Source: Anaerovorax sp. IOR16 (GTDB lineage Bacteria; Bacillota; Clostridia; Peptostreptococcales; Anaerovoracaceae). Taken from it: a DNA stretch of 40,000 bases. The translations under genes and the position numbers were made by a program. The notes beneath the pieces are model-generated. The model had not been told where the DNA came from and did not search any database. It saw only the letters and a list, made by a program, of their open reading frames with translations. Of the stretch, positions 5,150 through 20,639 are shown piece after piece (within the stretch, counting starts at the first letter, position 1; every line of letters starts with the position of its first letter). The stretch covers positions 1,080,799 through 1,120,798 of the forward strand of contig NZ_JADQTL010000009.1 of NCBI RefSeq assembly GCF_017168145.1, in the 5' to 3' direction.

Positions 5150-5455
5150 TCATATTCTTTTATATTCATTCATTAACCAACCAACACCTTTACTGTGGTT
5201 TTCATCAAACCAATACCAAATTTCTTCTCTATGTGTATTAATTGGAAAATATAAAAAATCATCTTCAATTTCTTCTGTCTCAGGATTCATAGGAATATCA
5301 CCAAAAATTTCCCAAAGTAATTCTAATTGTTTATCTGTATATTTTTCAGTTCCATCTAAATCTACAATACAATCGTTTCGTTCGCATACTGGGCAATGAG
5401 CAGATTCAGAATCAATATAAATATGTTCACACCAGTTACAACGTACTATATCCAT
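5150..5455 (-). CDS. zinc-ribbon-containing hypothetical protein
   Basis: ORF track; AAAGGAG SD; CNWCEH...CPVCERNDC cysteine pairs. Confidence 0.55.
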   Translation of the reverse strand: MDIVRCNWCEHIYIDSESAHCPVCERNDCIVDLDGTEKYTDKQLELLWEIFGDIPMNPETEEIEDDFLYFPINTHREEIWYWFDENHSKGVGWLMNEYKRI

Positions 5456-5486
5456 ATTTATAAACTCCTTTCAATATTATTATCTA

Positions 5487-5615
5487 TTAAACCAACCTTT
5501 CATAGCACATCAGTAAGTCTTCAAGTTCTCCATCGAAATTCTGTTTGCTTAAATCATTACCAATTGCTCGTATACGTTTTATAATTCCTCTTTTAATTGC
5601 TTCATAACTACTCAT
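5487..5615 (-). CDS. small hypothetical protein, 42 aa
   Basis: Below the track cutoff. ATG at 5615 is preceded by GAGGTGGG. Translates MSSYEAIKRGIIKRIRAIGNDL... Confidence 0.35.
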   Translation of the reverse strand: MSSYEAIKRGIIKRIRAIGNDLSKQNFDGELEDLLMCYERLV

Positions 5616-5695
5616 TTCGCCCACCTCATTCAATATATTATTTTTATTTTATTTATTATTATGTAATTAAAGCAAATCAAATGTTCATTTGCTTT

Positions 5696-5971
5696 TTATT
5701 TTTCTGCTAGAAGATTTTTCACTTGTTGCAATAGCTGAACAGCTTCTCCTTTTGATTCCAAATCACCGTCTTCAATTGATTCAATGATTCTGTCAATGCT
5801 ATTTTGATATTGTTTTGGGTAATATTTTTTAAATGTCACGCTTTCATTTTTAGCATCTAAAATAATTTCCAATGAATCATTGGTTTTAATTTGTAGAACC
5901 TTTCGAATTTCCGTTGGAATAACTATACGACCTACGTTATCTATCTTTCTCACAATTCCTGTTGTTTTCAT
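5696..5971 (-). CDS. AbrB/SpoVT-family DNA-binding protein (transition-state-regulator or antitoxin-like)
   Basis: N-terminus MKTTGIVRKIDNVGRIVIPTEIRKVL matches the swapped-hairpin AbrB motif (GRIVIPxEIR). AAAGGAGAA SD. Confidence 0.75.
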   Translation of the reverse strand: MKTTGIVRKIDNVGRIVIPTEIRKVLQIKTNDSLEIILDAKNESVTFKKYYPKQYQNSIDRIIESIEDGDLESKGEAVQLLQQVKNLLAEK

Positions 5972-6006
5972 ATGCTTTTCTCCTTTATCTTCATCAAATA
6001 ATCGTT

Positions 6007-6375
6007 TTATCGACTCTTAATATTTATTTCTAAATTCTTATTCATTAATCCATCAAATAAAATACTATACCCTTGCCCTTCATAAATTCCTGTTATATTA
6101 ATCATATATATTTCTTTTTCTGTAATATTGTTTTCGCTATCTTTTTCATAATTTATATTAGTATCTATCTTTATTCCTTTAAAAGTAAATCCATTCGGTA
6201 ATTCAATTTTTTCTCTATAATATCTGTTAGAAAATAATTTTATATCATTATTATACCCATCAAGAATATATTCTGCTGTTTCAAACTGTTTAATAAAATC
6301 ATTATCAAATTTATTTATAGCTTCTTCAATTTTAGCAAAATTTTTTGAACTTGAAGCACTAATTTTTATTCCCAT
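6007..6375 (-). CDS. hypothetical protein
   Basis: ORF track; GAAAGGA upstream. Confidence 0.55.
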   Translation of the reverse strand: MGIKISASSSKNFAKIEEAINKFDNDFIKQFETAEYILDGYNNDIKLFSNRYYREKIELPNGFTFKGIKIDTNINYEKDSENNITEKEIYMINITGIYEGQGYSILFDGLMNKNLEINIKSR

Positions 6376-6431
6376 TTTATTTACTCTATCCTTTCACAAT
6401 TTAGCATCAATTCAATATTTTATCTACTCTG

Positions 6432-6647
6432 TTATTTAATTGGATTCCCCATCATATCAAATTGTTTTTTACATATGTCACATTCTAAAAAATGTACTTT
6501 TGATATAGTTCCAACTCTTTCAGTTTTATTTACATGAGGACAACCATTTTTAATAATTTCTTGTTTTTCAATTTCTTTTTGATTTTCCTCTTGTATTATT
6601 TCAGCAAGTATTTCATCTGTAAGGTTTTCAAATTCTTGATTGCTCAT
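6432..6647 (-). CDS. small Cys-containing (CPH...CDIC) hypothetical protein
   Basis: ORF track; AGAAGG upstream. Confidence 0.55.
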   Translation of the reverse strand: MSNQEFENLTDEILAEIIQEENQKEIEKQEIIKNGCPHVNKTERVGTISKVHFLECDICKKQFDMMGNPIK

Positions 6648-6695
6648 TGCTGTTACCTTCTTTCTATCCCTATAAATCTACAATTTTATTCGTTG

Positions 6696-6860
6696 TTATT
6701 CTCCTAATCCTTCTTCCCAACCCCAGTCTGGGTCTATGGAAGCAATTCTGGCTTCTTCATAATCCATACCACAAATTTCAACTTTCCAATCTATCCATGA
6801 TTCTCTACTATCTTTCTTTCCTGTTTTCTGTAGATATTCTTTATAACTGTAATCCAACAT
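6696..6860 (-). CDS. small hypothetical protein, 54 aa
   Basis: Below the track cutoff. ATG at 6860 is preceded by GGAGGCG. Translates MLDYSYKEYLQKTGKKDSRESWIDW... It replaces the implausible plus-strand ORF 6647..6898. Confidence 0.45.
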   Translation of the reverse strand: MLDYSYKEYLQKTGKKDSRESWIDWKVEICGMDYEEARIASIDPDWGWEEGLGE

Positions 6861-6880
6861 CGTTTCGCCTCCTTTGGCTG

Positions 6881-7087
6881 TTATACCTCAATATTTAACA
6901 CATTATCTTGACAGTACACGTATTTGATTTCTGCATTCAAATATTCTTTTGAAATACCTTTGGATTTATCCTCAAACATACTACCTTCTGCTAATATATC
7001 GTAAGTTTCTGTATCGTCATCCCAATGTTTAATAGTAAAAGCACCTTGGATGATGATACTCTGTTCTAACAAGTCATTTATTGTCAT
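6881..7087 (-). CDS. hypothetical protein
   Basis: ORF track 6881..7141 starts at a TTG. The internal ATG (MTINDLLEQ...) follows AAAGGAG. Start uncertain. Confidence 0.5.
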   Translation of the reverse strand: MTINDLLEQSIIIQGAFTIKHWDDDTETYDILAEGSMFEDKSKGISKEYLNAEIKYVYCQDNVLNIEV

Positions 7088-7137
7088 AATGTTATACTCC
7101 TTTATATCTTCACATTTAAGTACAATATATTTTCTTA

Positions 7138-7800
7138 TCAACTCTTTTTTTCTTCTTCTGCTATATCTATTGGACAGATTTCTTGAACAGTACCACCTAC
7201 AGCCAATTTAAACCCTTCAAACTTTATTCTACCACTAAACAAGCCTCCGACTGTATTTTTCATTTCTTCTGTTACCAACACTTCGTTTTTTTTACTTATT
7301 GTATGCAAATACGAGTTCCAGTTACTGATATTTATCCAATCCCACCCTCTGTGCAATATATCACCATTGGGACATATACAAATAGATAACTGTAATGGGA
7401 TATCGAAAAATGGACATACATGGCATATCATACCACCATCTATATAGACTACATCGTCTTTGTTTTTTAAGTTGATAGGTATATCATCAATTATAATTAG
7501 TCTTTCATAATTCAATTCTTTCCCATCCTTGTCTAAATTGATGATACGTTTTAATATGCCACTTGCTGTATACATTTTCTTTGTTACTGTTATACTACTT
7601 ATTGCGTTTGAACGTATTTCTTCTTTTGTTATTTCCATATCGGGATTTAAAAAAGAATTTAAAAAATCAAATGGTGTCTCTTCATTGTCATAAACTCCGT
7701 TGTTAATATCATCTATGATTTTATCTTTTTCAAGTTTCGCAGTTTCATAATTATCGCAAGTTTTCACTGATTCTAAAAACTCAACACAATACTTTTCCAT
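7138..7800 (-). CDS. hypothetical protein
   Basis: ORF track; AAAGGAGAT SD. Confidence 0.6.
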   Translation of the reverse strand: MEKYCVEFLESVKTCDNYETAKLEKDKIIDDINNGVYDNEETPFDFLNSFLNPDMEITKEEIRSNAISSITVTKKMYTASGILKRIINLDKDGKELNYERLIIIDDIPINLKNKDDVVYIDGGMICHVCPFFDIPLQLSICICPNGDILHRGWDWINISNWNSYLHTISKKNEVLVTEEMKNTVGGLFSGRIKFEGFKLAVGGTVQEICPIDIAEEEKKS

Positions 7801-7811
7801 AATTATCTCCT

Positions 7812-8036
7812 TTAAAACATATATCCTTCTTCAAAAGTTGTATTATATCCTTTTTGGGATAACTCTCTTAAAACTGTGTCCATATCCTTTCGCTTGACTT
7901 CATTAACACAAACATTGTCATTATAGATTTTAACTTGAATCATGTTATTAATCGGTACAATCGTAGCATAAGAATGTTTGTTTGTGTTATGCTCTGCTTG
8001 ATAAGTGTTGGTTGCTAATTTGTTAACTTGTTTCAT
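7812..8036 (-). CDS. hypothetical protein
   Basis: ORF track; AAAGGAGAT SD. A sigma-70-like promoter lies just upstream on the minus strand (TTGATA ... TGTGATAAAAT, about 8085-8115). Confidence 0.55.
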   Translation of the reverse strand: MKQVNKLATNTYQAEHNTNKHSYATIVPINNMIQVKIYNDNVCVNEVKRKDMDTVLRELSQKGYNTTFEEGYMF

Positions 8037-8173
8037 TTTTTTAATCTCCTTTATACAAACAACGGATTTAAATTATCTCCAAAATAATTCTTTCCAACTC
8101 ATTTTATCACACCCTTTATCAATTTCCAATCTACATTATTTAATTGTAGCTTCGAAAATTTTTTGGCAAATCT

Positions 8174-8218
8174 TCTCACGCTTTTTGGCAAACTTTTCAT
8201 ATCTGCCATAGCGTGAGA
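8174..8218 (-). other. 8-bp inverted repeat (TCTCACGC / GCGTGAGA) flanked by GGCAAA/TTTGCC repeats, immediately 3' of the RT gene
   Basis: Read directly. Arms are at 8174-8181 and 8211-8218. TTTTGGCAAA occurs at 8161-8170 and 8184-8193, and an inverted TTTGCC at 8228-8233. Confidence 0.4.
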
Positions 8219-8257
8219 TTTTTAGTTTTTTGCCACTTAGTTTGAGATTATTGGTTC

Positions 8258-9343
8258 CTAGTTGTCCCTCCTGAATATAGTATCATTCAACAGCTTAGCC
8301 TTGAAGTTATAACTGTCAAAATGCTGCATGATACCAAGATATGACTGTACGGACTGGTTTATCTCTTCAAAGTCCTTAGAACCTTCCGAATAAGCTTTCT
8401 GAAGCATTTTAAACTTCCTCTTAATCTTCTTTAAGGTCTTTTTCTTTAGTTTTCTATGTGTAGCCCATACTCTAAAGCCTACAAACTCAATACCGCACGA
8501 TATGGGTCTTATAGCGGTCTTATTATTCAAGTCTAGGTCGAGAACTTCTTTTAAGAATACTTCAATATCGGTTTTAATCTCATGTAAGTATTTTTTATCA
8601 TCTGCCAGTATTATTATATCATCCATGTATCTTACATAGTAGTGTATTCCAAGCTTATGCTTAACATACTGGTCAAGCTCATTGAGATATATGTTAGCGA
8701 ATAGCTGAGAGGTTAAATTTCCTATCGGTATCCCTACATCAAAAAGCCTATCTTCTTCACTGCATTGGTCAGGCTCCATTCCAGCAGGAAGTCCAAAAGG
8801 AACATCTTCACTGTTTATAATCGTATCTAAAAGCCAAATAAGGTCTTCATCCTCAATCTTATTTTTCAGGATATCCAATAGTATTTTATGATTAATCCTG
8901 TAGAAATATTTTGATATATCCAGTTTTAAATAATAGTATTTCTGTGGCTTCCTGTTTACTTGCCTTAACCAATATTGAAGCCTATCAGCAGCCTTATGAG
9001 TACCTTTTCCAACTCTGCACCCATAACTATCATAAATGAATTGCTTGTCATATATCGGATATAAGACCCTGTATATAGCCCATTGGACAACTCTGTCCTT
9101 AAAGGGTAATGCCATTATTAACCGCTTTTTAGGGTCATAGACAAAGAATTCTCTATACCTACCAACCTCATAAGTCTTATATATTAATTCATTTTGAATC
9201 GTGATTAAATTCTCTTCAAGGTTTGTATTGAACTCCAGTACATCACGTCTGTATCGTTTGCCTTTCTTTGCTTCATTTGTTGCTATATAAAGATTTTCAA
9301 AGTCTATTATTTCAGAAAATATATTTCTTAGTTTTTTAGCCAT
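8258..9343 (-). CDS. DGR-type reverse transcriptase
   Basis: RT motifs are present: LDISKYF, GIPIGNLTSQLFANIYLNELD (the [I/L]GxxxSQ signature typical of DGR RTs) and YVRYMDDIIILADD. Start placed at the ATG (MAKKLRNIF...) behind GAGGAAG; the track start at 9397 has no SD. Confidence 0.9.
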   Translation of the reverse strand: MAKKLRNIFSEIIDFENLYIATNEAKKGKRYRRDVLEFNTNLEENLITIQNELIYKTYEVGRYREFFVYDPKKRLIMALPFKDRVVQWAIYRVLYPIYDKQFIYDSYGCRVGKGTHKAADRLQYWLRQVNRKPQKYYYLKLDISKYFYRINHKILLDILKNKIEDEDLIWLLDTIINSEDVPFGLPAGMEPDQCSEEDRLFDVGIPIGNLTSQLFANIYLNELDQYVKHKLGIHYYVRYMDDIIILADDKKYLHEIKTDIEVFLKEVLDLDLNNKTAIRPISCGIEFVGFRVWATHRKLKKKTLKKIKRKFKMLQKAYSEGSKDFEEINQSVQSYLGIMQHFDSYNFKAKLLNDTIFRRDN

Positions 9344-9423
9344 AAAGCACACTTCCTCATAATAATTAGTCATATGGCTATGTGTAGCACTTTTCATTTC
9401 TTACTTGGTGCTTCCATAGCAAT

Positions 9424-10740
9424 TTAATATTTTGCTTTGTCAGCAGGGAAATGAGCCCCTTTGTCCTCTCTGTACTGGATGCAAGCCCTTGAGCTTGCAA
9501 CATCTGACAATGAGAGCAGAGCGGAGCGGAAACCAATGTTGTTGCTCGAGTTCGAACGAAGGTTGTTCAAGTTCAAGGCGAAAACCCCAGCAACAGAACC
9601 GTCGTTCCAGTAGCCACCACGAATCGGAAGCCTTTCTCCGTAGTTACGAACCCAGAAGCCATCTCCTCCACACGAAGCATCTACTGGAGCAATCCCTAAA
9701 GCTTTTAACAACGTCGGTACTGTTACACCGCTCTTAGCAGCTAAAGTCTCAAAATTACAATGGCTGTATCTATAGTATTCGTTAACATCTCCACCAGTGT
9801 AGTTAGGATTATCCCTTACAGTATTTATGATTGGGTCTCCTCCTACATTGTTTCCATCTTTGTCCGCAGTACCAGGAGTTGTATTGTCAATTTTAAGAGT
9901 TGAAGCTGTGCCTGGTGCTGCCAAATTACCATCCTGTAAGACAGCTTTCCACCAAGAGCTTGTATCTCCAAAGTCAGCGTTTGCCATTGCAGCATCATTG
10001 TCCTTTACAATCTGTATTTCACCATTCTTAAGTCTTAGTCCAGCAGTCCACTCCCAGACATTACCGTTCAAGTCGAATATACCTTCATTTGTTCCATCAT
10101 GAGCCCATGCTGCTGAACCTGAACCAGTTGCAACTCTACCAGTATGATGATATTTAGTGCCATCAAATTCATTGGCTCTGTTGTTCCAGTTATAGTCTAG
10201 TAACCAATCGTAAGTTTGAACTCCGACCTCATGTAGTGCACTGTGTTCACCTCCACAATAATTGTTACCCCTTGGCATGTATCCGTTTTTCTTGCACCAT
10301 AAGGCTATTGCAGTCCATTCAGCATTCGTCATAAGATGCCAGCCTGCCCCTTTGTTTTTGCAGTATTGCACCGCTTGGTCAAAGTTCACATAGACTCTAG
10401 GGTCTTTCATTGGAAGTGAGTAAGCTCTATCATTTACAACTATGTTTTGATACTTAGATATCAGGATTTCATCCTTAACAACACCATCCACGATAAAGGC
10501 TGGATGCGTTGTATTAGGAGCACCGTCAATCACATCAGATAAGTTGAATTTTGGTATCCTAACCATTACTGAAGGCATCCCAAGTTCATCAAATAAATAA
10601 CTCTCTAATTCTTGCCCGTTTACATCGTCAATTTCTACTGGTATTAATGAACAATCTTTCATTATATATTTAGTATCATTAATAATTGATTTATAATCTT
10701 TGCTTGTTTTATTCCATTGTTTACTCGTAATTTTAAACAT
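9424..10740 (-). CDS. DGR target protein with C-terminal C-type-lectin/FGE-like fold
   Basis: Contains GWHLMTNAEW, GIFDLNGNVWEWTAG and a C-terminal RGGYWNDGSVAGVFALNLNNLRSNSSNNIGFRSA. It lies directly upstream of the RT on the same strand. AAAGGAGAT SD. Visibly G+C-richer than all neighbours. Confidence 0.85.
   Translation of the reverse strand: MFKITSKQWNKTSKDYKSIINDTKYIMKDCSLIPVEIDDVNGQELESYLFDELGMPSVMVRIPKFNLSDVIDGAPNTTHPAFIVDGVVKDEILISKYQNIVVNDRAYSLPMKDPRVYVNFDQAVQYCKNKGAGWHLMTNAEWTAIALWCKKNGYMPRGNNYCGGEHSALHEVGVQTYDWLLDYNWNNRANEFDGTKYHHTGRVATGSGSAAWAHDGTNEGIFDLNGNVWEWTAGLRLKNGEIQIVKDNDAAMANADFGDTSSWWKAVLQDGNLAAPGTASTLKIDNTTPGTADKDGNNVGGDPIINTVRDNPNYTGGDVNEYYRYSHCNFETLAAKSGVTVPTLLKALGIAPVDASCGGDGFWVRNYGERLPIRGGYWNDGSVAGVFALNLNNLRSNSSNNIGFRSALLSLSDVASSRACIQYREDKGAHFPADKAKY
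9480..9499 (-). promoter_or_regulatory. hairpin about 20 nt 3' of the VR (candidate DGR target-recognition hairpin)
   Basis: On the minus strand TGCAAGC-TCAAGG-GCTTGCA forms a 7-bp perfect stem. It follows a GC-rich run (TCCGCTCCGCTCTGCTCTC) at the VR 3' end. Confidence 0.45.
9520..9621 (-). other. candidate DGR variable region (VR)
   Basis: These 34 codons encode RGGYWNDGSVAGVFALNLNNLRSNSSNNIGFRSA and are rich in AAC codons. They sit at the position where VRs lie in CLec-fold targets. Exact ends cannot be set without the TR. Confidence 0.6.
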
Positions 10741-10753
10741 ATTATTATCTCCT

Positions 10754-11113
10754 TTACACTTTTGTGATGCTTATTCGTTCAAGCTTGCCCTCTTCGATTT
10801 CTGGATTATACGTCAAATGCCAATATTGAATATAACCCCCCCCACTCTGTAGTAAAATTGCCGCATTTTCATCCGTATATTCTTTAGAACATACACCTGA
10901 TTCTCTGAAAGCAATAAATCCCGAATATTGGACACCTTCATCAACGCATTTTAAATATTCATCAATATCATAAATAATATCACCAGCATACGATTCAGTA
11001 ATTTTCGCAGCAAGCCTAATTAGTTTATCAACAATGTTTGAAACGTTTTTACTACAAGATTTAACTGTATAATTGTCATATGTGGAATAACTATAAATTT
11101 TAACTTTTAACAT
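10754..11113 (-). CDS. hypothetical protein
   Basis: ORF track; AAGGAGAT SD. It does not look like a helical, basic Avd. Confidence 0.6.
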   Translation of the reverse strand: MLKVKIYSYSTYDNYTVKSCSKNVSNIVDKLIRLAAKITESYAGDIIYDIDEYLKCVDEGVQYSGFIAFRESGVCSKEYTDENAAILLQSGGGYIQYWHLTYNPEIEEGKLERISITKV

Positions 11114-11125
11114 AATTTCATCTCC

Positions 11126-11575
11126 TTAAATTATATCTGTAATCATTTTTCTTTCATATTCTAAAATCTGTTCATAAGTCAACCATTCAGGCTTTTCATT
11201 ATCAGGAAAACCATTCCATAACTCTTTCATTTTTTGGATTTGTTCTATTTCATTCTTAGCCCACAAGTGATTTGCATATCTGTTTCCGTTGCCTAAATAA
11301 TAATCACAATCCATCTGCAAACGACCTAATAACATATACTCAAACTGATAAGGACTATCAATTACACGCCCATTTATAAACTCAATTTCAATATCTTTGT
11401 CTTTATATATTTGACTTATTGGATATGCAAGTTCGCCATCATATGTGTTTGGAATTACACTATACAAAGATAAACAAGCTTCTTGATGTGGAGTTTCATC
11501 CTTCCAATATCGTCCATTTTCATCTTTATAAGTATGTTTACCCCAGTCATCTTTACCTATATATTCTAATTTCAT
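11126..11575 (-). CDS. hypothetical protein
   Basis: ORF track 11126..11650. The internal ATG (MKLEYIGKDDWG...) follows AAGGAG. The longer form would overlap 11608..11913. Confidence 0.6.
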   Translation of the reverse strand: MKLEYIGKDDWGKHTYKDENGRYWKDETPHQEACLSLYSVIPNTYDGELAYPISQIYKDKDIEIEFINGRVIDSPYQFEYMLLGRLQMDCDYYLGNGNRYANHLWAKNEIEQIQKMKELWNGFPDNEKPEWLTYEQILEYERKMITDII

Positions 11576-11607
11576 ATTATTACTCCTTATGAATTGTTTG
11601 TTTGATG

Positions 11608-11913
11608 TTAATTTAGTATCTCTTCTAATTGCTTGATTAGCTGTTTGCAATTACTAAATCTACAATCTTTACCCATAACATAATTGTCATGCCTATCATC
11701 TTCTCTTTCATAAATTTCGCAAATTACTTCTATATTATCTACTGCAAAAACTTGATATTTGCCCTTATAACCTTTTTTAATAGCTTCTTGCATAATTAGA
11801 TTTAATAATTTTTCCATATCAACTAAATTCTCTCGATTTTCATCCCATAGGTTATCTTGTTTTTGCATTTCTTCAGTATAGGTTAGTTTAATCACAGAAA
11901 CATCCCTCCTCAT
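11608..11913 (-). CDS. hypothetical protein
   Basis: ORF track. Start uncertain: a GTG at 11898 lies behind AGGAGGG. Confidence 0.5.
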   Translation of the reverse strand: MRRDVSVIKLTYTEEMQKQDNLWDENRENLVDMEKLLNLIMQEAIKKGYKGKYQVFAVDNIEVICEIYEREDDRHDNYVMGKDCRFSNCKQLIKQLEEILN

Positions 11914-11930
11914 AAAACTGTTCTTTCATT

Positions 11931-12545
11931 TTAATTGTCATAACAACTCAAATTCCAAGCGTTCCCAAGCTCGTAATATAAACCGTACTTAGATAATAAG
12001 CTGCGGAATTCTCCTTCTATTCTACATCCATATTCACCCAAATAACCGTTTAAAACTTCATAAAAATCACCTTCAAATGACATCGACAAGCAGCCGCCAG
12101 CATAATCAAAATAATCACTTGCTTCTTTATTCTCTTCAATGATAATTTTGTCCTTATCATTGTAGTAATACTTATTTGTTTCTGCATCGTGTGTTGTCAT
12201 TCGTTTGCCATTGAAATAAATACAGACATCTGTCCACATTTCTTTTTCAAGAAGAAGCTGACGAATTTCATAAACAAGTTTCTCGATTTCTTCTTCAGAT
12301 AATCTAAATGATTTTTGTTCCTCTTCTGGAAATGCTGCTGACATAATTTCTTCATAATTACTTTCAAACATTTCACGGGCTTCGCTTATTTTTTCTTGAA
12401 GTAATTCCTCAAATTCACTTTGTAATGTTCTGCCACTTGATGGATTAATATTTTGTGCCATTAAAATCAAGTCACCAAAAGTGATATTATCAAGAACATT
12501 ATCACATACATTAAGGTCGTCACCAAGTTTCCAATTTCTGTCCAT
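11931..12545 (-). CDS. hypothetical acidic protein
   Basis: ORF track; TAGGAGTG SD. Confidence 0.6.
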   Translation of the reverse strand: MDRNWKLGDDLNVCDNVLDNITFGDLILMAQNINPSSGRTLQSEFEELLQEKISEAREMFESNYEEIMSAAFPEEEQKSFRLSEEEIEKLVYEIRQLLLEKEMWTDVCIYFNGKRMTTHDAETNKYYYNDKDKIIIEENKEASDYFDYAGGCLSMSFEGDFYEVLNGYLGEYGCRIEGEFRSLLSKYGLYYELGNAWNLSCYDN

Positions 12546-12557
12546 TATTATACACTC

Positions 12558-13436
12558 CTATTTACACATTTGTTTTCTTATTAATTCATAAGGTTTATGA
12601 GTTTTCCAATTTTCAGAACCGTCATTTGTATATCTATAAGTGTCAATACAATGATTTTCATCATCATATTTTACCTTTACAAATATAATTCCATTGCACA
12701 TTCTTGTGTCTACTGGCAAATCCAATCCATCCCACTCTTCACGAGTAATAAGATACTCTCTTTCTTTATAAAGAAATGCAACTGTTTGATTTTCCCAATT
12801 GCCTTTAAATATTTTTGCTCTATAGGTTTCTAAATAAGCATTTAATTCTTCTTTGCTTACCCATGCATGTCCATCTGCAAAATAAATATAAGGTTCACAC
12901 ATAGATTTTTGTTTTGGAGCATCTGGATTATATGAAATATATTGTTTAACATAATCCTTTGTACTATATTCACCGTAAAGAGAATTAGGTTCTTTATATT
13001 CCCAAACATTAACTAATGCATGGAAATTAAATGCACCATTAGCACAACCGCCGCAATGTCCCCAATCTTTAAATGTCTTTAATCTTTTACCAAACAATTT
13101 TAGATTATTAGGGATATTGCACCACGCCCCACCAGATGTACTACAATAAATATTTCTTTTATCATCTTTCAAACCAATAAATGGAATATAAGGCTGTTCA
13201 CAAATATAGCAACTATCTTCCTCGAATCTATCCAAAGATTCAACATGTGCATTACGGTAATAATCTCCATGCTTATTTGTAAATTCAATAATATCTCCAA
13301 CTTGAATCTGATTATCAGTACGACTTTCCTCGATGATTTTTACATACATATTAGCTTTTTCAATGTCGGATTGAGTAACTCTATGTTGGTAATCATATGA
13401 TAGATTTATTTCTTTTAATGTTTCAATTGTATACAT
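12558..13436 (-). CDS. hypothetical protein
   Basis: ORF track; AAGGAGTG SD; 292 aa. Confidence 0.65.
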   Translation of the reverse strand: MYTIETLKEINLSYDYQHRVTQSDIEKANMYVKIIEESRTDNQIQVGDIIEFTNKHGDYYRNAHVESLDRFEEDSCYICEQPYIPFIGLKDDKRNIYCSTSGGAWCNIPNNLKLFGKRLKTFKDWGHCGGCANGAFNFHALVNVWEYKEPNSLYGEYSTKDYVKQYISYNPDAPKQKSMCEPYIYFADGHAWVSKEELNAYLETYRAKIFKGNWENQTVAFLYKEREYLITREEWDGLDLPVDTRMCNGIIFVKVKYDDENHCIDTYRYTNDGSENWKTHKPYELIRKQMCK

Positions 13437-13576
13437 TTCATCACACTCCTTAATTACTTCTTTGTAAATTCAAAGCATAATTGCTAACTTCCAGCATATT
13501 AACTTCAGAAGCCTTATGCCTTCTCAAATAGGAATACATATTATAATCTAGCTGTCTAAAAATCTTCAAACAACTA

Positions 13577-13849
13577 CTAAGAGACAAATTTCCCATCAAT
13601 TATATTCCTTTCATATTTATTATTATTATGTCTTGTATGTAATCTTTTTCTTTTAGGCTGTTCATCTTCTTCATACACTTCTTCAAGATTTCTCTTTGTA
13701 AATAAAGAATATAGTCCTAATGGAAGAGTGAATAATGCAGCATTTACATTATGTGATTCGGGATTAGTATCTGTTGAAGTTACTGCTAGTATGATAATGA
13801 CTATAGAAATAAATATCAGCCCTAACCCTGCTATCTTTTGTTTAATCAT
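13577..13849 (-). CDS. small membrane protein (two hydrophobic segments, basic tail)
   Basis: ORF track; AAGGAGAA SD; hydrophobic stretches GLGLIFISIVIIILAV and ALFTLPLGLYSLF. Confidence 0.55.
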   Translation of the reverse strand: MIKQKIAGLGLIFISIVIIILAVTSTDTNPESHNVNAALFTLPLGLYSLFTKRNLEEVYEEDEQPKRKRLHTRHNNNKYERNIIDGKFVS

Positions 13850-13946
13850 CTCATTTTCTCCTTATTAAATTTTAAATATTATTTATTATTATGTATTGTG
13901 CTACTAATATAACACAATAATTCGGTGAATGCAAGGTATATTTTCC

Positions 13947-14297
13947 CTATTCTTCCCAAATTCCATTTACATAGAAAGAGATTTGAAGGTTGTCCTCACC
14001 GCCACCTCTTACAATTACTTCGTCTGCAAGATTTACAAGTTCTATAAATTTAGGTTTTGTAATTTCATTTAATTCAAATTCTTCCATGAATGCCTGAACA
14101 AAATGAGATTTTTGAGTGTTATCAGTTGGAATATCTGATACAATATCTGCATCTTCGAATAATTCAAGAGCTAAATCACGCACTTTTGCAAATTGTTCAG
14201 CCTTGTCAGCAATCATATTTTTCCCATTGATTTTAGACTTTTCTAGGCAATCGTCTATCACGGCAATAACTTTTTCAGCAGTTTCTTTTTTAGTCAT
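13947..14297 (-). CDS. hypothetical protein
   Basis: ORF track 13947..14318. The internal ATG (MTKKETAEK...) follows AAAGGAGAG. Confidence 0.55.
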   Translation of the reverse strand: MTKKETAEKVIAVIDDCLEKSKINGKNMIADKAEQFAKVRDLALELFEDADIVSDIPTDNTQKSHFVQAFMEEFELNEITKPKFIELVNLADEVIVRGGGEDNLQISFYVNGIWEE

Positions 14298-14314
14298 AAT
14301 TTCTCTCCTTTTAA

Positions 14315-14752
14315 TCAACCATAAATAACTTCACCAAATAAAGCAAATTGAATAATACAGTCTGCTGTTGTAGCATCCATGTTATCTAAATCACAATCAT
14401 CTGGTCTTTCTTGAATATTTAACGCTATTCCTTTTAATAACTTTTCGAGATTTAACTTTTCATCTTTAAAATTATCCCATTCAGCATCATCAAATGTAAT
14501 TGATTTTCCAGTTAGCAGCAATTCTGTTGCCCATTGTGAAATTGGCATATTTTCAGGCTTTTCATTCCATTCGGTAGTCGTATTATTAAGGCAAGCCCAA
14601 TAACCAATCCCATCTTCTAATGCCGTTATGACAATATTTTCAATATCTGAATAAGTAATTATTTTTTCAATCTGAATAACAAGTGACTTTTTAGATGTAT
14701 CTTTTTTCATATCATAGCCATATTCAGTTTTGTCAAACAAAGTTGTATTCAT
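14315..14752 (-). CDS. hypothetical protein
   Basis: ORF track 14315..14812. The internal ATG (MNTTLFDKTE...) follows AAAGGAA. Confidence 0.55.
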   Translation of the reverse strand: MNTTLFDKTEYGYDMKKDTSKKSLVIQIEKIITYSDIENIVITALEDGIGYWACLNNTTTEWNEKPENMPISQWATELLLTGKSITFDDAEWDNFKDEKLNLEKLLKGIALNIQERPDDCDLDNMDATTADCIIQFALFGEVIYG

Positions 14753-14820
14753 GATTAAAATTCCTTTCTTTAATATCAAATGCTGATTTGATAAGGTGTT
14801 AATCAACAACAATCGTTAAT

Positions 14821-15033
14821 TTATTCTTCGTCATTAGCAAGTATTAAATGTTTATATTGATGATATTTAGAAATCTCTTCTTTGTAGTAGTCTTTGGTAT
14901 ATGCTTCACCTCTTAAAAATCCATCACGAAAACATTCTTCCATTGCTTTTCCAATGTCATTTGGATAATCTTCTAATATAGTTTTGATAGCTTCAGGTTT
15001 TGTCATTTCCCCATATTTTGTTGTTACACTCAT
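14821..15033 (-). CDS. hypothetical protein
   Basis: ORF track; AAAGGAGGAT SD. Confidence 0.55.
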   Translation of the reverse strand: MSVTTKYGEMTKPEAIKTILEDYPNDIGKAMEECFRDGFLRGEAYTKDYYKEEISKYHQYKHLILANDEE

Positions 15034-15045
15034 TTTAATCCTCCT

Positions 15046-15204
15046 TTAAACTCTTTCAAATTGTCCGTCTTTTACCCATCGTGTAAATCCATATTTTGTG
15101 ACTCCATAAAACGGAACTTCATCCTCAATAGCGATTTCTTCAACTGTTACAATTTCGTTATTAACTTTAATTTTATCTCCTACTTTGATATTATTGTCTT
15201 CCAC
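15046..15204 (-). CDS. small hypothetical protein, 52 aa (GTG start)
   Basis: Below the track cutoff. GTG at 15204 lies 7 nt after GGAGG (complement of 15212-15216). Translates (M)EDNNIKVGDKIKVNNEIVTVEEIAIEDEVPFYGVTKYGFTRWVKDGQFERV. Confidence 0.4.
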   Translation of the reverse strand: MEDNNIKVGDKIKVNNEIVTVEEIAIEDEVPFYGVTKYGFTRWVKDGQFERV

Positions 15205-15276
15205 TACAATTCCTCCACTTTATCATATTTTGAGATAATTTCGTCAATATCAGTTTTGTAATTTTTTATTATCTTA

Positions 15277-15384
15277 TCAATTGGTAGATGATTTGTTGTT
15301 TTTTTTCACAACTTTCGAATCTGATTCAAGCATTTCAGAAAATTGTTTCAATTCTTCAATTAAACTTAATAATTCATCATTCAT
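15277..15384 (-). CDS. small hypothetical protein, 35 aa
   Basis: ATG at 15384 is preceded by AAGGTG. Translates MNDELLSLIEELKQFSEMLESDSKVVKKNNKSSTN. Confidence 0.3.
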   Translation of the reverse strand: MNDELLSLIEELKQFSEMLESDSKVVKKNNKSSTN

Positions 15385-15431
15385 TTTTATTCACCTTTAA
15401 CCTTCCACATAAAATAACTCTTTGATTTTAA

Positions 15432-15644
15432 TTATAACCACCCATAGCCATTCCATTTTCTGTATTTTCTATATTGACTATCCCACATTGCCCTTTGTCC
15501 ATCCTCAAGCTCTATTACTTCACCTGATTCTGCACGACCAAATTCATATGCAATGTCAATTACATCTGTAGAGTCGGTTTCGACTGTATAATTATCTCCT
15601 CTTGTGTTGTCGCTTGACATCCAAAATTTAATTTCCTTTTTCAT
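15432..15644 (-). CDS. hypothetical protein
   Basis: ORF track 15432..15668. The internal ATG (MKKEIKFWMSS...) follows AAAGGAGAA. Confidence 0.5.
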   Translation of the reverse strand: MKKEIKFWMSSDNTRGDNYTVETDSTDVIDIAYEFGRAESGEVIELEDGQRAMWDSQYRKYRKWNGYGWL

Positions 15645-15936
15645 TCCAATTCTCCTTTCGATAATCACTTTTAAACCATTATATCATGATTAAAGGACAG
15701 CCACACGCTATTGACTAAATTTTAAAACTTTGTTATTATGTACTCAACCTATAGGATTAAACATCTTATTATCCGCTTAAATGCAGAGAAAATTTGTTTA
15801 ATCTTTTTTATTGTACTTTTACGAATTCTAAACTTAATTGTAATAGTAATTTCAAACATACTATTCACCTCGCTGTTTTAAAGACTGAAGGCGTGTGTAT
15901 GTTGAATGTAGCTGCCCTTGAATAATGACATAAAAA

Positions 15937-16122
15937 TTAGGCTTTTATTTGATTAGATAACAATGTTCTTTCACATTGAAATTTGACATTGTTGGATTTG
16001 CAATAACTAATAGCATCACCAATATTGTTGAATGGATTTACAATATCCATCACAAACTTATTTCGTTCATATAAACAAATGTGAAATAGATTTGTATACA
16101 TAGAATTTTTAATAATAATCAT
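15937..16122 (-). CDS. hypothetical protein, 61 aa
   Basis: The track ORF 15937..16251 appears to be an over-extension. The ATG at 16122 (MIIIKNSMYTN...) lies 8 nt after GGGAGG. Confidence 0.5.
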   Translation of the reverse strand: MIIIKNSMYTNLFHICLYERNKFVMDIVNPFNNIGDAISYCKSNNVKFQCERTLLSNQIKA

Positions 16123-16150
16123 GAATAAAACCTCCCAAATTGACTTCTTA

Positions 16151-16297
16151 TTATGATATAGAAATAACTGTTGTGCCTTTGTTTTTAGCATAACTTTCTG
16201 CAACTGCATAAACATTAACACTTCCAGTAAGCTTTGGAAATAAAACTTCACCGTTAGCTAAAACAACTTTATACTGAACAACTGCTGGACAATTCAT
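16151..16297 (-). CDS. small hypothetical protein, 48 aa
   Basis: ATG at 16297 is preceded by GGAGG. Translates MNCPAVVQYKVVLANGEVLFPKLTGSVNVYAVAESYAKNKGTTVISIS. It occupies the space wrongly covered by the 104-aa track ORF. Confidence 0.45.
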   Translation of the reverse strand: MNCPAVVQYKVVLANGEVLFPKLTGSVNVYAVAESYAKNKGTTVISIS

Positions 16298-16357
16298 AAC
16301 ATAAACCTCCTATAAAATTAACTTTTAAAATCTCTATAGAATGCATATTTCATGCGG

Positions 16358-16699
16358 TCATTTTACAAAGTGATTAATAGATAATTTGATAGGTTCATCA
16401 TAGAAATCAAAATGATTACCTTCTTTAAGTATTCCATCAATGTTTAATTCAAAATAAAACCTTTTATCATTTCCAATACCTGCAAATAAATTATAATAAT
16501 TTGTATCGTTTGGAATTAGAAAATTAATCACAACGGCATTACCCCAGTCAACAGGAATTTCTTGAATAGTTGCTTCTTGTGGAATACTAGCAAGGTTCAT
16601 TAACTTTCTTGCAACGTCAGCTTTGTTCAAACTCCTGCAATCAGTCGATTCCATGTTACAGATTTGTTCAACATACTGCATTATCAATTGTTTATCCAT
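16358..16699 (-). CDS. hypothetical protein
   Basis: ORF track; TGGAGGAT SD. Confidence 0.6.
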   Translation of the reverse strand: MDKQLIMQYVEQICNMESTDCRSLNKADVARKLMNLASIPQEATIQEIPVDWGNAVVINFLIPNDTNYYNLFAGIGNDKRFYFELNIDGILKEGNHFDFYDEPIKLSINHFVK

Positions 16700-16729
16700 A
16701 GTAATCCTCCATATGCACTCAAACAGACT

Positions 16730-16945
16730 TTAAAAATCATCCTCTAAAGTAGTTCCAAAGATACCATCAACGGCATTAACAATTGTGTCAGCAAACCCAA
16801 TTACCCCAAGCCAATTAAAATACCTTTCCAAGACTTCACGCTTGTCCATCTCCATAATTTCTGAATCCATACTTTCATCGTCTGGTTCGATTCCTAAATT
16901 TTGTCTGACATTTTCCATAATGTCTTCGTTATATGTTTCGTCCAT
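16730..16945 (-). CDS. hypothetical acidic protein
   Basis: ORF track 16730..16990. The internal ATG (MDETYNEDIM...) follows AGGAGG. Confidence 0.5.
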   Translation of the reverse strand: MDETYNEDIMENVRQNLGIEPDDESMDSEIMEMDKREVLERYFNWLGVIGFADTIVNAVDGIFGTTLEDDF

Positions 16946-16955
16946 AATAAACCTC

Positions 16956-17402
16956 CTATAAATCATAATGACTAGAAACTGTATAAACATTTCCTTTCAT
17001 TTTTACATATCTAGCAAAACATTGACCAGTACAATCGTACATTGAATTAGTAGGATAATGTTCTGAATAAAGTGGCAAATCATTATTTAATAGCCAATTG
17101 TATTTGAACTTCTTAGTCGTTCCTTTTGGAAACACAATACGCATAATAGTTTCATCATAATCACCATCATAGTCAATACAAATATTCTTGTATCCATTAG
17201 CTTTTCGAATCATTTTTTCAACACAAACGATATCAGACTTTAACAAATCAAATCTTTCCTGCATTCTAGGAGAAAAATCGTCCTTCATATCATCATAAAG
17301 TTCGATATCTTCTAATATTTTTTTACGAATTTTCCCTAAAATAAATATATTTTTCTTGTTTGAACTCGACACTTCACATAAAACACTACGAAGAACTTTC
17401 AT
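16956..17402 (-). CDS. hypothetical protein
   Basis: ORF track; TGGAGGT SD. Confidence 0.6.
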   Translation of the reverse strand: MKVLRSVLCEVSSSNKKNIFILGKIRKKILEDIELYDDMKDDFSPRMQERFDLLKSDIVCVEKMIRKANGYKNICIDYDGDYDETIMRIVFPKGTTKKFKYNWLLNNDLPLYSEHYPTNSMYDCTGQCFARYVKMKGNVYTVSSHYDL

Positions 17403-17612
17403 GATAGACCTCCATTAATGACGATTATTTAATTCAGAAATAGCTTCACTTAATGCCAATTTTCTTTGAGTTTCCAATTCTGACTCTGAACATTCAATTT
17501 TTAAATTCTCAATCCAAGCATCAAGTTCTTCAATACTCATTTCTTTTAAATCCATAACAATCCTCCCAAATATTAGGTTAAAATCAACTCAATTATAACC
17601 TAAAAAGGTGAC

Positions 17613-18392
17613 TTATGCCACCTTTTGTTCCTGTTTGGTATTTTGTTCAGTCAAAGCCTTTTCATGCTTCTCAATCAACTCTTTAAGTGATTGGTTAGAA
17701 AGTTTAATCGTCTCATTACAAGATTCAATAATCTTTTCAAACTCTGCAATTTTCGCTAAGACATCATCTGATTGATTCAAGGTTTTTAACGTAGCAATTT
17801 GCACCTTAACGGACTCAATCTTAGACTCTGCCTTTTTTCTGCCACTAATAATTTTTCTCTGAGAAGTCAAGAAATCCCTTTGGGAATCGTCCATAACTTC
17901 CGCATTACAAATTTTGATACCAAGCAAAGTCTCAATATCTTTACGGAATCGGCTCAATTTCGTGTGAGCAATTTCCTTGAATGCCACGAAATCTTTATCA
18001 TCATCAATATTTACAGAATCATCCATGAACATTTCAGAATAACCGACAATACTGTCAATATCAGTCTCGCTGCAACGCATATCTTTTGAAGTCTTATCCT
18101 TCTCACCACTGGAAAGCAATTCCTTCCACAATGGGTAGAGCGGTTCACGGGCAACAAGCTTCTCATTTTCCAAAGTTAATGGATTATGCTTAACGGTGAT
18201 GTAATTACAAGTAGCCTTGTAAAGCTTTTCAATGTTGGAAAGATACACTTTGAACCAAACCTCGTCAATTTCAAGTTCAGAAATCATCTTCTTTGAAATC
18301 AGACCTTTGTTTCCCTTTTCACGAGCCAAGACAAATGCCTTTCTCATGTAATTAATGTTGTAAGAATCATTTCTCTTTGCTTTAGCAGTCAT
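17613..18392 (-). CDS. hypothetical protein with C-terminal coiled-coil-like region
   Basis: ORF track; AAAGAGG SD; 259 aa. Confidence 0.65.
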   Translation of the reverse strand: MTAKAKRNDSYNINYMRKAFVLAREKGNKGLISKKMISELEIDEVWFKVYLSNIEKLYKATCNYITVKHNPLTLENEKLVAREPLYPLWKELLSSGEKDKTSKDMRCSETDIDSIVGYSEMFMDDSVNIDDDKDFVAFKEIAHTKLSRFRKDIETLLGIKICNAEVMDDSQRDFLTSQRKIISGRKKAESKIESVKVQIATLKTLNQSDDVLAKIAEFEKIIESCNETIKLSNQSLKELIEKHEKALTEQNTKQEQKVA

Positions 18393-18459: not shown

Positions 18460-19130
18460 AAAATAACTATTTGCTCACTCTGCATTTTACGGACTTGTGA
18501 CCGTTTACAAATTGTAAGTTGCATTAAGCAACCGCCAGTATAAAACTAGCGGTTTATATTAAAAACCTTTTCTTTACAAACCTACCGCCCTTTACAGTTC
18601 AAAAGTTGTATAGTGTTAGTGTCGCAATGACTAAACCTGCATCGTTTCACGGAATACAGGACTAACTAATATACGGTTATTGAATGCTTGTAACAGCCTT
18701 ATAAATTTGTATTGAACCGACTTTACTGTTCACAGCTTACAGATTCCTCAAGCCGAGTTTGGGATTTCCTGCTTCCCTCTGACATTCACTACCTGTCAGA
18801 CAGCGTTCAATTATTATAACTATCATACTTTGCTCGTAGAGCCTTGCTTCATTTGTTTTCTTACCAAGCAAGTGGCAATAGACTTAGTGGTTCGTCACTT
18901 GTCCGTTTGGACTGGCTTTCATACCATGCTTACCATCATACCTCATCAACCACTTGGAATGTATAAACTGCTATTGTGATTGACTTCATGTCTTTCCTAT
19001 CCGTCCTGTATGGTTACTACCCACTGTATCAGTTATGAGTTATAGCATGTTCTCTTATATATACTGTATTTGACCAGTATATTATTGAGGTGTGTATGTG
19101 AGATTTTTTTACACGTTATTTGTGCGTGTC
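18460..19130 (-). ncRNA. candidate large non-coding RNA or long structured leader (class unknown)
   Basis: About 0.7 kb with no ORF of 60 aa or more on either strand. It is visibly G+C-richer than the flanking coding DNA and has many short hairpins. It is bracketed by two promoter-like repeats (19056-19179) and a terminator-like hairpin (18421-18459). Strand is inferred only from that bracketing. Confidence 0.3.
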
Positions 19131-19179
19131 TCTCTCGCTTACATATACACTGTAATTTAAAGTGCATTTATTGAGGTGT
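19056..19179 (-). promoter_or_regulatory. two tandem copies of a promoter-like repeat (minus strand ACACCTCAATAA-N11/12-AAATWACAGTRTATAT)
   Basis: Copies at 19056-19093 and 19141-19179. Two further copies occur at 20031-20070 and 20141-20171. Confidence 0.35.
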
Positions 19180-19198
19180 CATTTTAAAAATATTTTTA

Positions 19199-19240
19199 GA
19201 AAATAAAAAACCGTCAGAATTGTTTAAATTCCAACGGTTT
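19199..19240 (-). terminator. rho-independent terminator downstream of the sigma-like gene
   Basis: On the minus strand AACCGT...ACGGTT forms a stem with an inner GAATT/AATTC stem, followed by TTTTTTATTTT. Confidence 0.6.
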
Positions 19241-19262
19241 GAGGTGTTTTCATGTTTTGTTA

Positions 19263-19874
19263 TTACATGATTTTAGATAACTTTTTACGAATATATAAAA
19301 CTCTATCCTTTGCAGTATTATGAGAGATGCATAAAATACGTGCTATTTCTGCAATGGTGCAACCTTGCAATAGTAACTGGAGTGTTTCGGCTTGTTTATC
19401 GGTAAGGATTTCTAATAGTTCGCTTATTAATTCTTGGATTTCCACGTCCTCTAGGCTCTTATGGTACTCTCTGACAGCTTTGGTGTACATGACGTTCTCG
19501 GTTGCTTCTTCTTCACTCATTTCTTCACCTTTACTATTTAAGGCATTGCGGTTTGTTACCCATAAATGCTTATAGTGTTTTTGCTCCATTTGATACATTG
19601 TATTTTGTACTGTCTGAAATACTGTTTTCTTCACATCGTCGGTAAGAAAAACAAGGTTGTTTGCTCTGCTGTCTATTTTGATTTCTTTCAAGTTTTCCAA
19701 TATTGTGAGTGTTACTTCTTGTTTCAAGTCGTCAAGCAATGTATGTCGGAACGTGTTTAATATCTCACTTGCTTTAGAGTTTCCTCTGCTTTCCATCGTT
19801 TTGAGTGCCTTATATGTGATTTTAGCACTTGCTTGGGCGATAATGGTAACTTGCTTTTCATTCAATTTTTTCAT
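19263..19874 (-). CDS. sigma-70/ECF-family-like transcription factor (region-4/LuxR-type HTH at C-terminus)
   Basis: The C-terminus LTDKQAETLQLLLQGCTIAEIARILCISHNTAKDRVLYIRKKL is a typical sigma region 4 / LuxR HTH. GAGGGAAG SD. The N-terminal region-2 assignment is weaker. Confidence 0.55.
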   Translation of the reverse strand: MKKLNEKQVTIIAQASAKITYKALKTMESRGNSKASEILNTFRHTLLDDLKQEVTLTILENLKEIKIDSRANNLVFLTDDVKKTVFQTVQNTMYQMEQKHYKHLWVTNRNALNSKGEEMSEEEATENVMYTKAVREYHKSLEDVEIQELISELLEILTDKQAETLQLLLQGCTIAEIARILCISHNTAKDRVLYIRKKLSKIM

Positions 19875-20030
19875 GGTTCTTCCCTCTCTGCTTTTTTACG
19901 TGGGTTGCGTCCACTGATTAAATAATGGTTTAGTTAGTGGGTAGTAGGTAAATACTACCTATATAATAGTATATATCATTGGTGAGATATTACAAGTGTT
20001 ATTTTAATTATTATTATCTATTGTTTAGAT

Positions 20031-20171
20031 GTATTTATACTGTAATTTGTTGGGTAGAAATCGAGGTGTATTGGGTGAGATTTATTATTTATTGTTATGC
20101 ACTGTTATTCATTGTGTACTATTTATACATATTATTGTATGTTTATACTGTATATTATTTATAAGTGTTGG
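20031..20171 (-). promoter_or_regulatory. two further copies of the ACACCTC...ACAGTATAAA promoter-like repeat, upstream of the sigma-like gene
   Basis: Copies at 20031-20070 and 20141-20171, in the same orientation as those at 19056-19179. Confidence 0.35.
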
Positions 20172-20444
20172 AATATCAATGTTTTATTTATGAATAAATG
20201 TATAATAATTCATGGTTTTAAGGTATTATATATCGTTACTATGGTAAAAAGTCGCTTAAATCAAAGAATAGAGCTTCTATTTTATGGAAGGCTTAGAAAC
20301 GTTGGAAATTGTGGGTTTGTGAGTGTATGTAGTTTGTATTGTTATACGTTTTTATGTGTAATTATGCGTTATAGTGTAAAATTACATTGTTTGTGTGATT
20401 GGTGAGTGTTGGGTTTGGATTGTATTTGTAATGGTTTGGTTTAT

Positions 20445-20460
20445 AGTGTAAATTTACACT
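20445..20460. repeat. perfect 16-bp palindrome AGTGTAAATTTACACT; part of a roughly 35-nt direct repeat (20368-20402 and 20439-20473)
   Basis: Read directly. The first copy, ATAGTGTAAAATTACATTG, is imperfect. Confidence 0.7.
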
Positions 20461-20521
20461 TTTTATGTAATTGGTTGGTATTGGTGTGGTTAGTTACTAT
20501 TATGGAAGAATTGAAAAAATT

Positions 20522-20599
20522 ATTGTATACAATTTTAACTTTTTCACCGATGAAATTATAAGGCATAAATTGTATACAGTTTTTATTATTGTATACAAT
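20522..20599. repeat. three copies of the TTGTATACA palindrome core (perfect 12-mer ATTGTATACAAT twice)
   Basis: ATTGTATACAAT at 20522-20533 and 20588-20599. TTGTATACA at 20570-20578. All lie at the point where strand composition flips. Confidence 0.7.
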
Positions 20600-20608
20600 T
20601 AAGTAATC

Positions 20609-20639
20609 CAACTTCCAGTTCTCCCAAAAGTGGAAGTTG
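20609..20639. other. 9-bp perfect hairpin (CAACTTCCA ... TGGAAGTTG)
   Basis: Arms at 20609-20617 and 20631-20639. No U-tract on either strand, so it is not an obvious terminator. Confidence 0.55.

Follow-up and report, generated by a model that had tools for sequence, protein, structure and literature searches.

A degenerate diversity-generating retroelement with a single VR/TR hybrid repeat in a prophage of Anaerovorax sp. IOR16

Does a reverse transcriptase (RT) gene that lies next to a target gene with a C-type-lectin (CLec) fold and an AAC-rich end mark a working diversity-generating retroelement (DGR)? The question is raised by a locus on the minus strand of the stretch of DNA analysed here, 40,000 nucleotides from Anaerovorax sp. 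IOR16, which is called the window in the following. A preliminary description had taken the locus for a DGR. The assignment to this family was right, RT and CLec target both being of DGR origin, but the claim of an intact DGR is not supported: there is only one repeat, and avd, the hairpin and the flank of the variable repeat (VR) are missing. The locus is a degenerate DGR. As to its nature, we consider it probable that it is a copy of a phage-type DGR that has collapsed and been displaced, and most likely this copy is a frozen remnant rather than a hypermutation system at work.

The genes in question are readily identified. The target open reading frame (ORF) at 9424-10740 on the minus strand encodes 438 amino acids and is WP_245157126.1 by exact look-up; the RT protein is WP_206458930.1 and is encoded on the same 1,357,774-bp contig of Anaerovorax sp. 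IOR16. The RT ORF is open upstream to 9397 (8258-9397, 379 aa), but its likely start is M19, the ATG at 9343, which is preceded by GAGGAAG. With this start, the distance to the stop of the target gene (9424) is 80 nt, as had been stated before; the first ATG of the RT ORF would leave 26 nt.

For comparison we used the IMG/VR contigs L001-L003, Bacillus phage BalMu-1 (NC_030945) and dozens of genome loci. In 27 classical relatives the order is target gene with VR, a GC hairpin in a VR-specific flank, avd, template repeat (TR), RT-14 RNA and RT. The two repeats are about 86-91% identical to each other, and the start of the VR is 565-568 nt away from the start of the TR in the four loci measured. 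In relatives with a nearby RT, 659-1667 nt lie between the end of the target and the start of the RT, with Avd encoded in between, and in typical relatives the distance from the end of the TR to the RT start is 126-232 nt. In the window, the end of the repeat and the start of the RT are 165 nt apart, which is a TR-side value.

The C-terminal segment of the target, RGGYWNDGSVAGVFALNLNNLRSNSSNNIGFRSA, is encoded at about 9520-9621 and has seven AAC codons. No second copy of this AAC-rich repeat was found in the window, neither by a repeat search nor by an ungapped 40-nt scan of both strands at an identity of at least 65%. Window positions 8264-9631 form one unbroken blastn match to TR, spacer and RT of six relatives (L001, L002, L008, L009, L024 and L025). 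On the VR side, the match to the relatives is limited to the repeat and the target coding sequence that precedes it. Since the upstream flank is that of a target gene and the downstream flank that of a TR, the single repeat is a VR/TR hybrid.

The state of the adenines within the repeat leads to the same picture. Positions were scored that are A in most TRs of the 27 classical relatives (for the 5' half, A in 74-100%). In the 5' half of the repeat, four of the eight conserved TR-adenine positions are non-A; the mutated codons are TAC (9612-9610), GAC (9603-9601) and GTT (9594-9592), and the corresponding codons of the relatives are AAC, AAC and, in the third case, mostly AAC or AAT. In the 3' half, 14 of 15 such positions are A; at the remaining one there is a G, within an AGC codon. 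This G is also found in the near-identical TR copies on the Logan contigs L087 and L088, and none of the 15 positions was therefore counted as mutated. The difference (4/8 versus 0/15) gives p of about 0.008 in Fisher's test by our own arithmetic. Contig L087, which is 96.6% identical, has AAC in place of the GAC of the window. The most likely site of the crossover is the 18-nt adenine-free stretch between the two halves.

The AAC-rich 3' half is directly followed by the TR-side RT-14 RNA and the RT, which identifies it as the template half of the hybrid. The preliminary description had read the AAC-rich last segment as the mark of a target of mutagenic retrohoming. The codons are indeed there; judged by its sequence, however, their abundance is the signature of a template and not that of a target.

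What follows the repeat is a structured RNA. Rfam RT-14 (RF02921) matches on the minus strand with 77.7 bits (gathering threshold 48.1) over model positions 1-144 of 144, and the first base matched is 9521, one base past the repeat. All eight relatives checked have a single RT-14 match per locus, which adjoins the TR directly and precedes the RT (L001, 5830-5968; L003, 5827-5982; L006, 3538-3681; also L008, L009, L024, L087 and L089). In an alignment of the spacer from 26 loci, compensatory changes are seen in 23 of the 28 predicted pairs. The motifs RT-1 to RT-19 near RT genes were described by Weinberg et al. (PMC5737381). RT-10, which lies between TR and RT in BPP-1, was the only one that they assigned to a DGR; a link of other RT motifs to DGRs was their guess. 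RT-14 can now be added to RT-10 as a motif of DGRs.

The last 31 codons of the 438-aa ORF (9427-9519) lie inside this non-coding RNA and align with the TR-downstream spacer of relatives. In the frame of the window tail, L001 has a stop after three codons. These 31 codons are read-through into a non-coding RNA and not native coding sequence.

The elements that relatives have on the VR side are missing. In an alignment, nothing in the window corresponds to their VR-specific 3' flank, GC hairpin or avd. The flank, which is like an initiation of mutagenic homing (IMH) site, and the GC hairpin follow the VR in L001, L003, L089 and BalMu-1; the sole hairpin after the window repeat is the stem of RT-14, a TR-side element. 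A tblastn search of the window with three Avd proteins of relatives gave no avd (best E about 1). Among the relatives with a nearby RT, most carry avd in the interval from target to RT, and only two decayed loci are without it. No Avd of IOR16 was obtained in a protein search with the Avd of a relative, but that search scores only proteins that share exact words and is weak evidence. In BPP-1, bRT, Avd, TR and the inverted repeat after the IMH are each required (PMC12875486; see also PMC3240598).

Further insight comes from a paralogue, P0001 (WP_206458929.1, 384 aa), which is encoded on the same contig and has a canonical N terminus as well as the canonical end GFRSAFVNL before the stop. It is 100% identical to residues 53-372 of the window protein over 320 residues, whereas in the repeat segment 10 of 35 codons differ. 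This distribution (0/320 versus 10/35) is consistent with past DGR activity. All five differences in the 3' half are adenine-type if the window is taken as reference (N>H, N>Y, N>Y, S>G and I>F). In the 5' half, Y, D and V of the window stand against G, H and A of P0001; the underlying changes (T>G, G>C and T>C) are not adenine-type, so that in this half the VR of P0001 and the window repeat are independent derivatives of a lost template. A side observation concerns repeat codon 17 (L087 positions 1-30 against window 9574-9603), which is GGG in L087, GTT in the window and Ala in P0001. These three states would fit a template adenine codon, and the 5' end of L087 may be either TR or a k-mer path into a VR.

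The accessions of the window neighbours run from WP_206459404 to ...9413, and from one flanking gene of the cassette to the other no accession has been given to a gene in between. The accession of the RT adjoins that of P0001. This order indicates a second locus, P0001 with an identical RT, elsewhere on the same contig. A third RT copy that differs in one residue is found on a contig of 324,691 bp, and the genome thus has at least three near-identical RT copies. Exact-pattern scans of viral and metagenome contigs with the spacer sequence gave no near-identical cassette with an intact context.

That the RT belongs to the DGR lineage is supported by its nearest relatives and by curated cut-offs. 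The DGR-type RT with an SQ motif and YMDD that had been claimed is borne out: the SQ-containing motif DVGIPIGNLTSQLFANIYLNELD and YVRYMDDIIIL are both in the RT ORF, and Pfam RVT_1 matches with E=3.8e-24. The nearest relatives (61-77% identity) all come from classical DGR loci with target-VR, avd, TR and RT, and the RTs of the IMG/VR contigs L001-L003 are 69-77% identical. Group II intron RT/maturase, NCBI's name for the protein, was rejected, with 142.6 bits for TIGR04416 against an equivalog cut-off of 300; an Rfam scan of 8000-11000 found no group II intron RNA family. Likewise rejected were a retron (retron_St85_RT, 49 bits against a cut-off of 235) and a defence RT of the DRT type (Drt3a, 58 bits against 200). 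In PADLOC, the best match of the RT is the generic RT model. The closest homologues of RT and target with E<1e-100 number in the thousands, and the features of both are therefore not due to chance.

The target contains both GWHLMTNAEW and GNVWEWTAG and matches Pfam FGE-sulfatase with E=2.7e-9. An AlphaFold2 (AF2) model was built on 42 homologues. Its predicted local distance difference test score (pLDDT) is above 90 over most of residues 50-411 and below 50 at residues 1-43 and 413-438, the sole parts of low confidence; these two ends are exactly the parts that the relatives do not have. In Foldseek, the top match in the Protein Data Bank (PDB) is the DGR variable protein TaqVP (5VF4; E=8e-43, 41% identity, TM 0.86), followed by TvpA and Mtd (for Mtd, E about 1e-3). 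On this model, the body of the target is predicted to have a CLec fold and to be a variable protein of the TaqVP type. The FGE/CLec-like domain that had been seen in the ORF is confirmed by the Pfam match together with the structural match, and in the comparison with Mtd/TvpA-type folds that had been recommended, TaqVP comes out ahead of both.

Both ends of the protein are unusual. The ORF runs 31 codons beyond the usual end, GFRSA(FVNL) and stop. Among the 120 homologues listed, none covers more than 93% of the target used as query, and nearly all have 350-390 aa. At the other end, DNA homology of the target to DGR relatives stops at about 10596, and the first 52 codons are of other origin. 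The ORF is preceded by a strong Shine-Dalgarno sequence.

How may such a locus have come about? The ancestral cassette would have consisted of a TaqVP-type target ending in a VR, the VR flank with its GC hairpin, avd, TR, RT-14 RNA and RT. Recombination between VR and TR, repeats of about 112 nt, either within one cassette or between near-identical copies in the genome, would then have joined the 5' part of the VR to the 3' part of the TR. This event would have removed about 570 bp, that is the end of the VR, the recognition hairpin, avd and the 5' flank of the TR. Afterwards, the target ORF would read through TR-type codons into the RT-14 RNA and gain a fortuitous tail of 31 residues. The copy would also have moved out of its normal genomic context. 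We infer this mechanism from the order of the remaining parts and the make-up of the repeat. A cDNA-mediated origin of the fusion was rejected, as the TR-derived half is not adenine-mutagenised. In consequence of the collapse, and by analogy with BPP-1, the locus should no longer be able to receive mutagenised cDNA because it is without the VR-side recognition elements, it should be unable to make cDNA on its own without Avd, and the 438-aa protein would be a frozen variant.

Several points weigh against a frozen remnant. The RT ORF, the RT-14 RNA and the TR-type half of the repeat have all remained intact, and the genome has another copy of the RT with 100% identity; the event was therefore recent, or selection still acts on these parts. 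The fusion ORF, which has a good Shine-Dalgarno sequence and a new leader, is in frame and may be expressed and used. Moreover, about a quarter of the curated DGRs are without avd and may work without it (PMC5758913).

The last point also speaks for the alternative that survives best, which we nevertheless consider unlikely, namely that the hybrid repeat, the RT-14 RNA and the RT work as a donor in trans and give mutagenised cDNA to VRs elsewhere, for example that of P0001, with Avd either provided by another copy or not needed. As just said, RT, RT-14 RNA and the adenines of the 3' TR half are intact; P0001 with its canonical VR end is on the same contig, and every difference between its VR and the window repeat in the 3' half is adenine-type. 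In the 5' half, however, G, H and A of P0001 are not derivable from TAC, GAC and GTT by adenine changes, and the present VR of P0001 was thus not templated by the window hybrid. In addition, the order of accessions indicates that P0001 has its own adjacent RT, Avd is encoded in all close relatives, and it is required in BPP-1 (PMC12875486). If a donor in trans were nevertheless at work here, a template could live inside a coding gene.

Next in probability, and improbable as well, comes an assembly artefact: the real locus would be a complete DGR, and the assembler would have jumped from VR to TR via shared k-mers and lost about 570 bp. VR/TR repeats are a classic point of collapse, and the short-read Logan contigs L087 and L088 break inside the TR; the junction lies in a stretch common to both repeats, and the near-identical RT copies, at least three in number, complicate assembly. 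On the other hand, the cassette is part of a 1.36-Mb contig that also holds a second copy of a repeat of at least 2.3 kb. With short reads alone such a repeat would rarely be resolved, which suggests long reads, and in these a loss of 570 bp is uncommon. In addition, the 5' end of the cassette is rearranged and has the new leader, and the genomic context is non-canonical; the copy is therefore a genuinely different one. The lack of an IOR16 Avd in the exact-word protein search points in the same direction, but only weakly.

It is tempting to speculate that the hybrid is a compact arrangement in which the template resides in the 3' end of an expressed target paralogue and serves, jointly with the RT-14 RNA and RT next to it and independent of Avd, as a trans-acting donor that diversifies P0001 or other VRs in the genome's several prophages, but this we regard as very unlikely. 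Hardly any weight is left for an ordinary functional DGR with 9520-9621 as VR and the TR elsewhere, as read in the preliminary description: remote arrangements of TR and VR are known, the genome has other DGR copies and a DGR-type RT does lie beside a CLec target, but the repeat is followed by the TR-side RT-14 RNA instead of a VR-side flank and hairpin, its 3' half has no mutated adenine, no other repeat is present in the 40 kb, and, VR-side elements being absent, recognition as a recipient would not be expected. A collapsed, displaced copy is therefore the reading that we prefer.

The window is prophage-like and encodes terminase, portal, exonuclease and integrase, and the cassette (about 8139-10737) is located in the accessory region of this Anaerovorax sp. 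IOR16 prophage, with LPD11, DUF4121 and AbrB-type small genes as neighbours. The GC content is 33-40% over 8001-11000 compared to 27-31% in the adjoining flanks. A related element, L090 (Logan SRR32069044, 22,108 bp), corresponds to window 5449-17625 and is 88-97% identical on both sides but is without the cassette: in blastn, 97% identity extends up to 10738, the start codon of the target, and resumes at 8138. In place of the cassette, L090 has seven unrelated small ORFs, and the boundary of the exchange is exactly at the start codon; the DUF4121, LPD11, 118-aa and AbrB genes are shared with the window. Homology to the DGR relatives spans 8129-10596, with L009, L087 and L088 extending it to 8129-8145. 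Just 3' of the RT stop, at 8180-8245 on the minus strand, there are nested inverted repeats, TCTCACGCT...AGCGTGAGA, which enclose TGGCA...TGCCA, and TTTGCCAAAAA is present twice. This segment may be a terminator or a protein-binding site. The features of the cassette are summarized in Table 1.

Table 1. Coordinates of the DGR-derived cassette and its parts within the window.
Feature	Position	Strand	Basis or remark
DGR-clade RT gene, 361 aa	8258..9343	minus	RVT_1, SQ motif, YMDD; WP_206458930.1
Body of the TaqVP-type CLec variable protein (predicted), residues 53 to ~370	9632..10584	minus	Identity to P0001, AF2 and Foldseek, Pfam FGE-sulfatase
Non-canonical 52-codon N-terminal leader with its own Shine-Dalgarno sequence AAAGGAGA	10585..10740	minus	Replaces the canonical N terminus of P0001 and relatives
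Sole DGR repeat copy in the window, 112-nt VR/TR hybrid	9520..9631	minus	No second copy in 40 kb; flanks differ
VR-derived 5' part of the hybrid repeat	9592..9631	minus	Mutated template adenines in codons TAC, GAC, GTT
Probable crossover interval, adenine-free GCTGGGGTTTTCGCCTTG	9574..9591	minus	Inferred; bounded by the last substitution of VR type and the first AAC that is intact
TR-derived 3' part of the hybrid repeat (six AAC, AGC, ATT)	9520..9573	minus	Template adenines all intact
RT-14 RNA (Rfam RF02921), structured spacer RNA between TR and RT in this DGR clade	9378..9521	minus	
31-codon read-through tail and stop of the 438-aa ORF	9424..9519	minus	RT-14 RNA sequence, not native coding
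Whole block replaced in the related element L090 by unrelated small ORFs	8139..10737	minus	blastn
Conserved 3' segment after the RT, part of the travelling cassette, with nested inverted repeats	8129..8257	minus	Homology to L009, L087, L088

Some features outside the cassette should be mentioned in this connection. A 379-aa transposase (36704-37843, plus strand; PHROG 506, E=4e-102) is encoded in the head and packaging region between the ORFs with matches to terminase large subunit (33742-35604) and portal protein (38005-39135) and looks like an insertion sequence inside the prophage. Also within the prophage-like region, a tRNA-Lys (UUU) gene at 31011-31085 on the plus strand overlaps with two ORFs, one on the minus strand (30667-31083) at its end and one on the plus strand (30971-32098) at its start. 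At about 19000-21500, the direction of transcription and the GC skew switch, with genes running leftward before ~19.9 kb and rightward beyond 21.2 kb; on its two sides, the switch has a sigma-70 region-4/HTH protein (19263-19874, minus) and the integrase (21215-22069, plus).

What does this locus tell about DGRs in general? An RT, a CLec target and AAC-rich codons look like a textbook case, yet three parts needed for homing are missing, and this calls for caution in automated DGR calling. The assignment of RT-14 to the TR-RT spacer of a large clade of DGRs from Firmicutes phages provides a simple marker to distinguish the TR side from the VR side. If our reading is correct, the locus is an example, readable at the level of sequence, of a DGR that died by recombination between its own repeats, and such a VR x TR collapse may explain some of the many RTs that are found without a TR/VR pair. 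A shallow literature search met no description of a VR x TR fusion as a route of decay. Among the 80 genome loci, L011 was a candidate for another collapsed DGR by its match coordinates, but it is classical.

The closest known systems are the phage-type DGRs of BalMu-1 and L001-L003. Their RTs are 61-77% identical to that of the window and their targets have the same fold; target identity to phage-type relatives is 50-64% in the genome set and 81% in the Logan contig L092. The codon layout of the repeat (GGC AAC TGG AAC AAC ... AAC xTG AAC AAC) and the RT-14 RNA between repeat and RT are common to all. The window differs from them in having one repeat instead of two and no avd, VR-specific 3' flank or GC hairpin, and its target has a foreign N-terminal leader and a tail of 31 residues. 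Moreover, compared to the canonical locus, the cassette is found among the LPD11, DUF4121 and AbrB accessory genes and without the conserved upstream genes; in BalMu-1, the conserved small genes upstream of the target adjoin a virion structural gene. The DGR of BPP-1 (Mtd, bAvd, TR and bRT) is similar in its CLec-fold target and in the structured RNA between TR and RT, there RT-10 (PMC5737381). However, the lineages of RT and target are distant, and BPP-1 has every part that homing needs (PMC12875486), whereas the window is without three of them. TaqVP (PDB 5VF4), the best structural match of the window protein, shares the C-terminal CLec variable region, but the window protein has non-native extensions at both ends and its variable region is half template sequence.

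Decay of DGRs as such is common. Wu et al. discarded more than half of their candidate DGRs as inactivated (PMC5758913). One decayed DGR of the same family came up among our loci, in Clostridia bacterium MS499-75 (BNUF01000029.1; L050, 10999-11400). It has an internal RT deletion: an intact target with a canonical VR end precedes a remnant of 89 aa in which the N and C termini of the RT are joined, and neither avd nor TR was found at this locus. The window resembles the inactivated DGRs of Wu et al. in having a DGR RT without a usable TR/VR pair, and also in the several near-identical copies per genome, probably in prophages (PMC5758913). In contrast to those cases, the route of decay can here be read from the sequence of the window itself, as a fusion of VR and TR.

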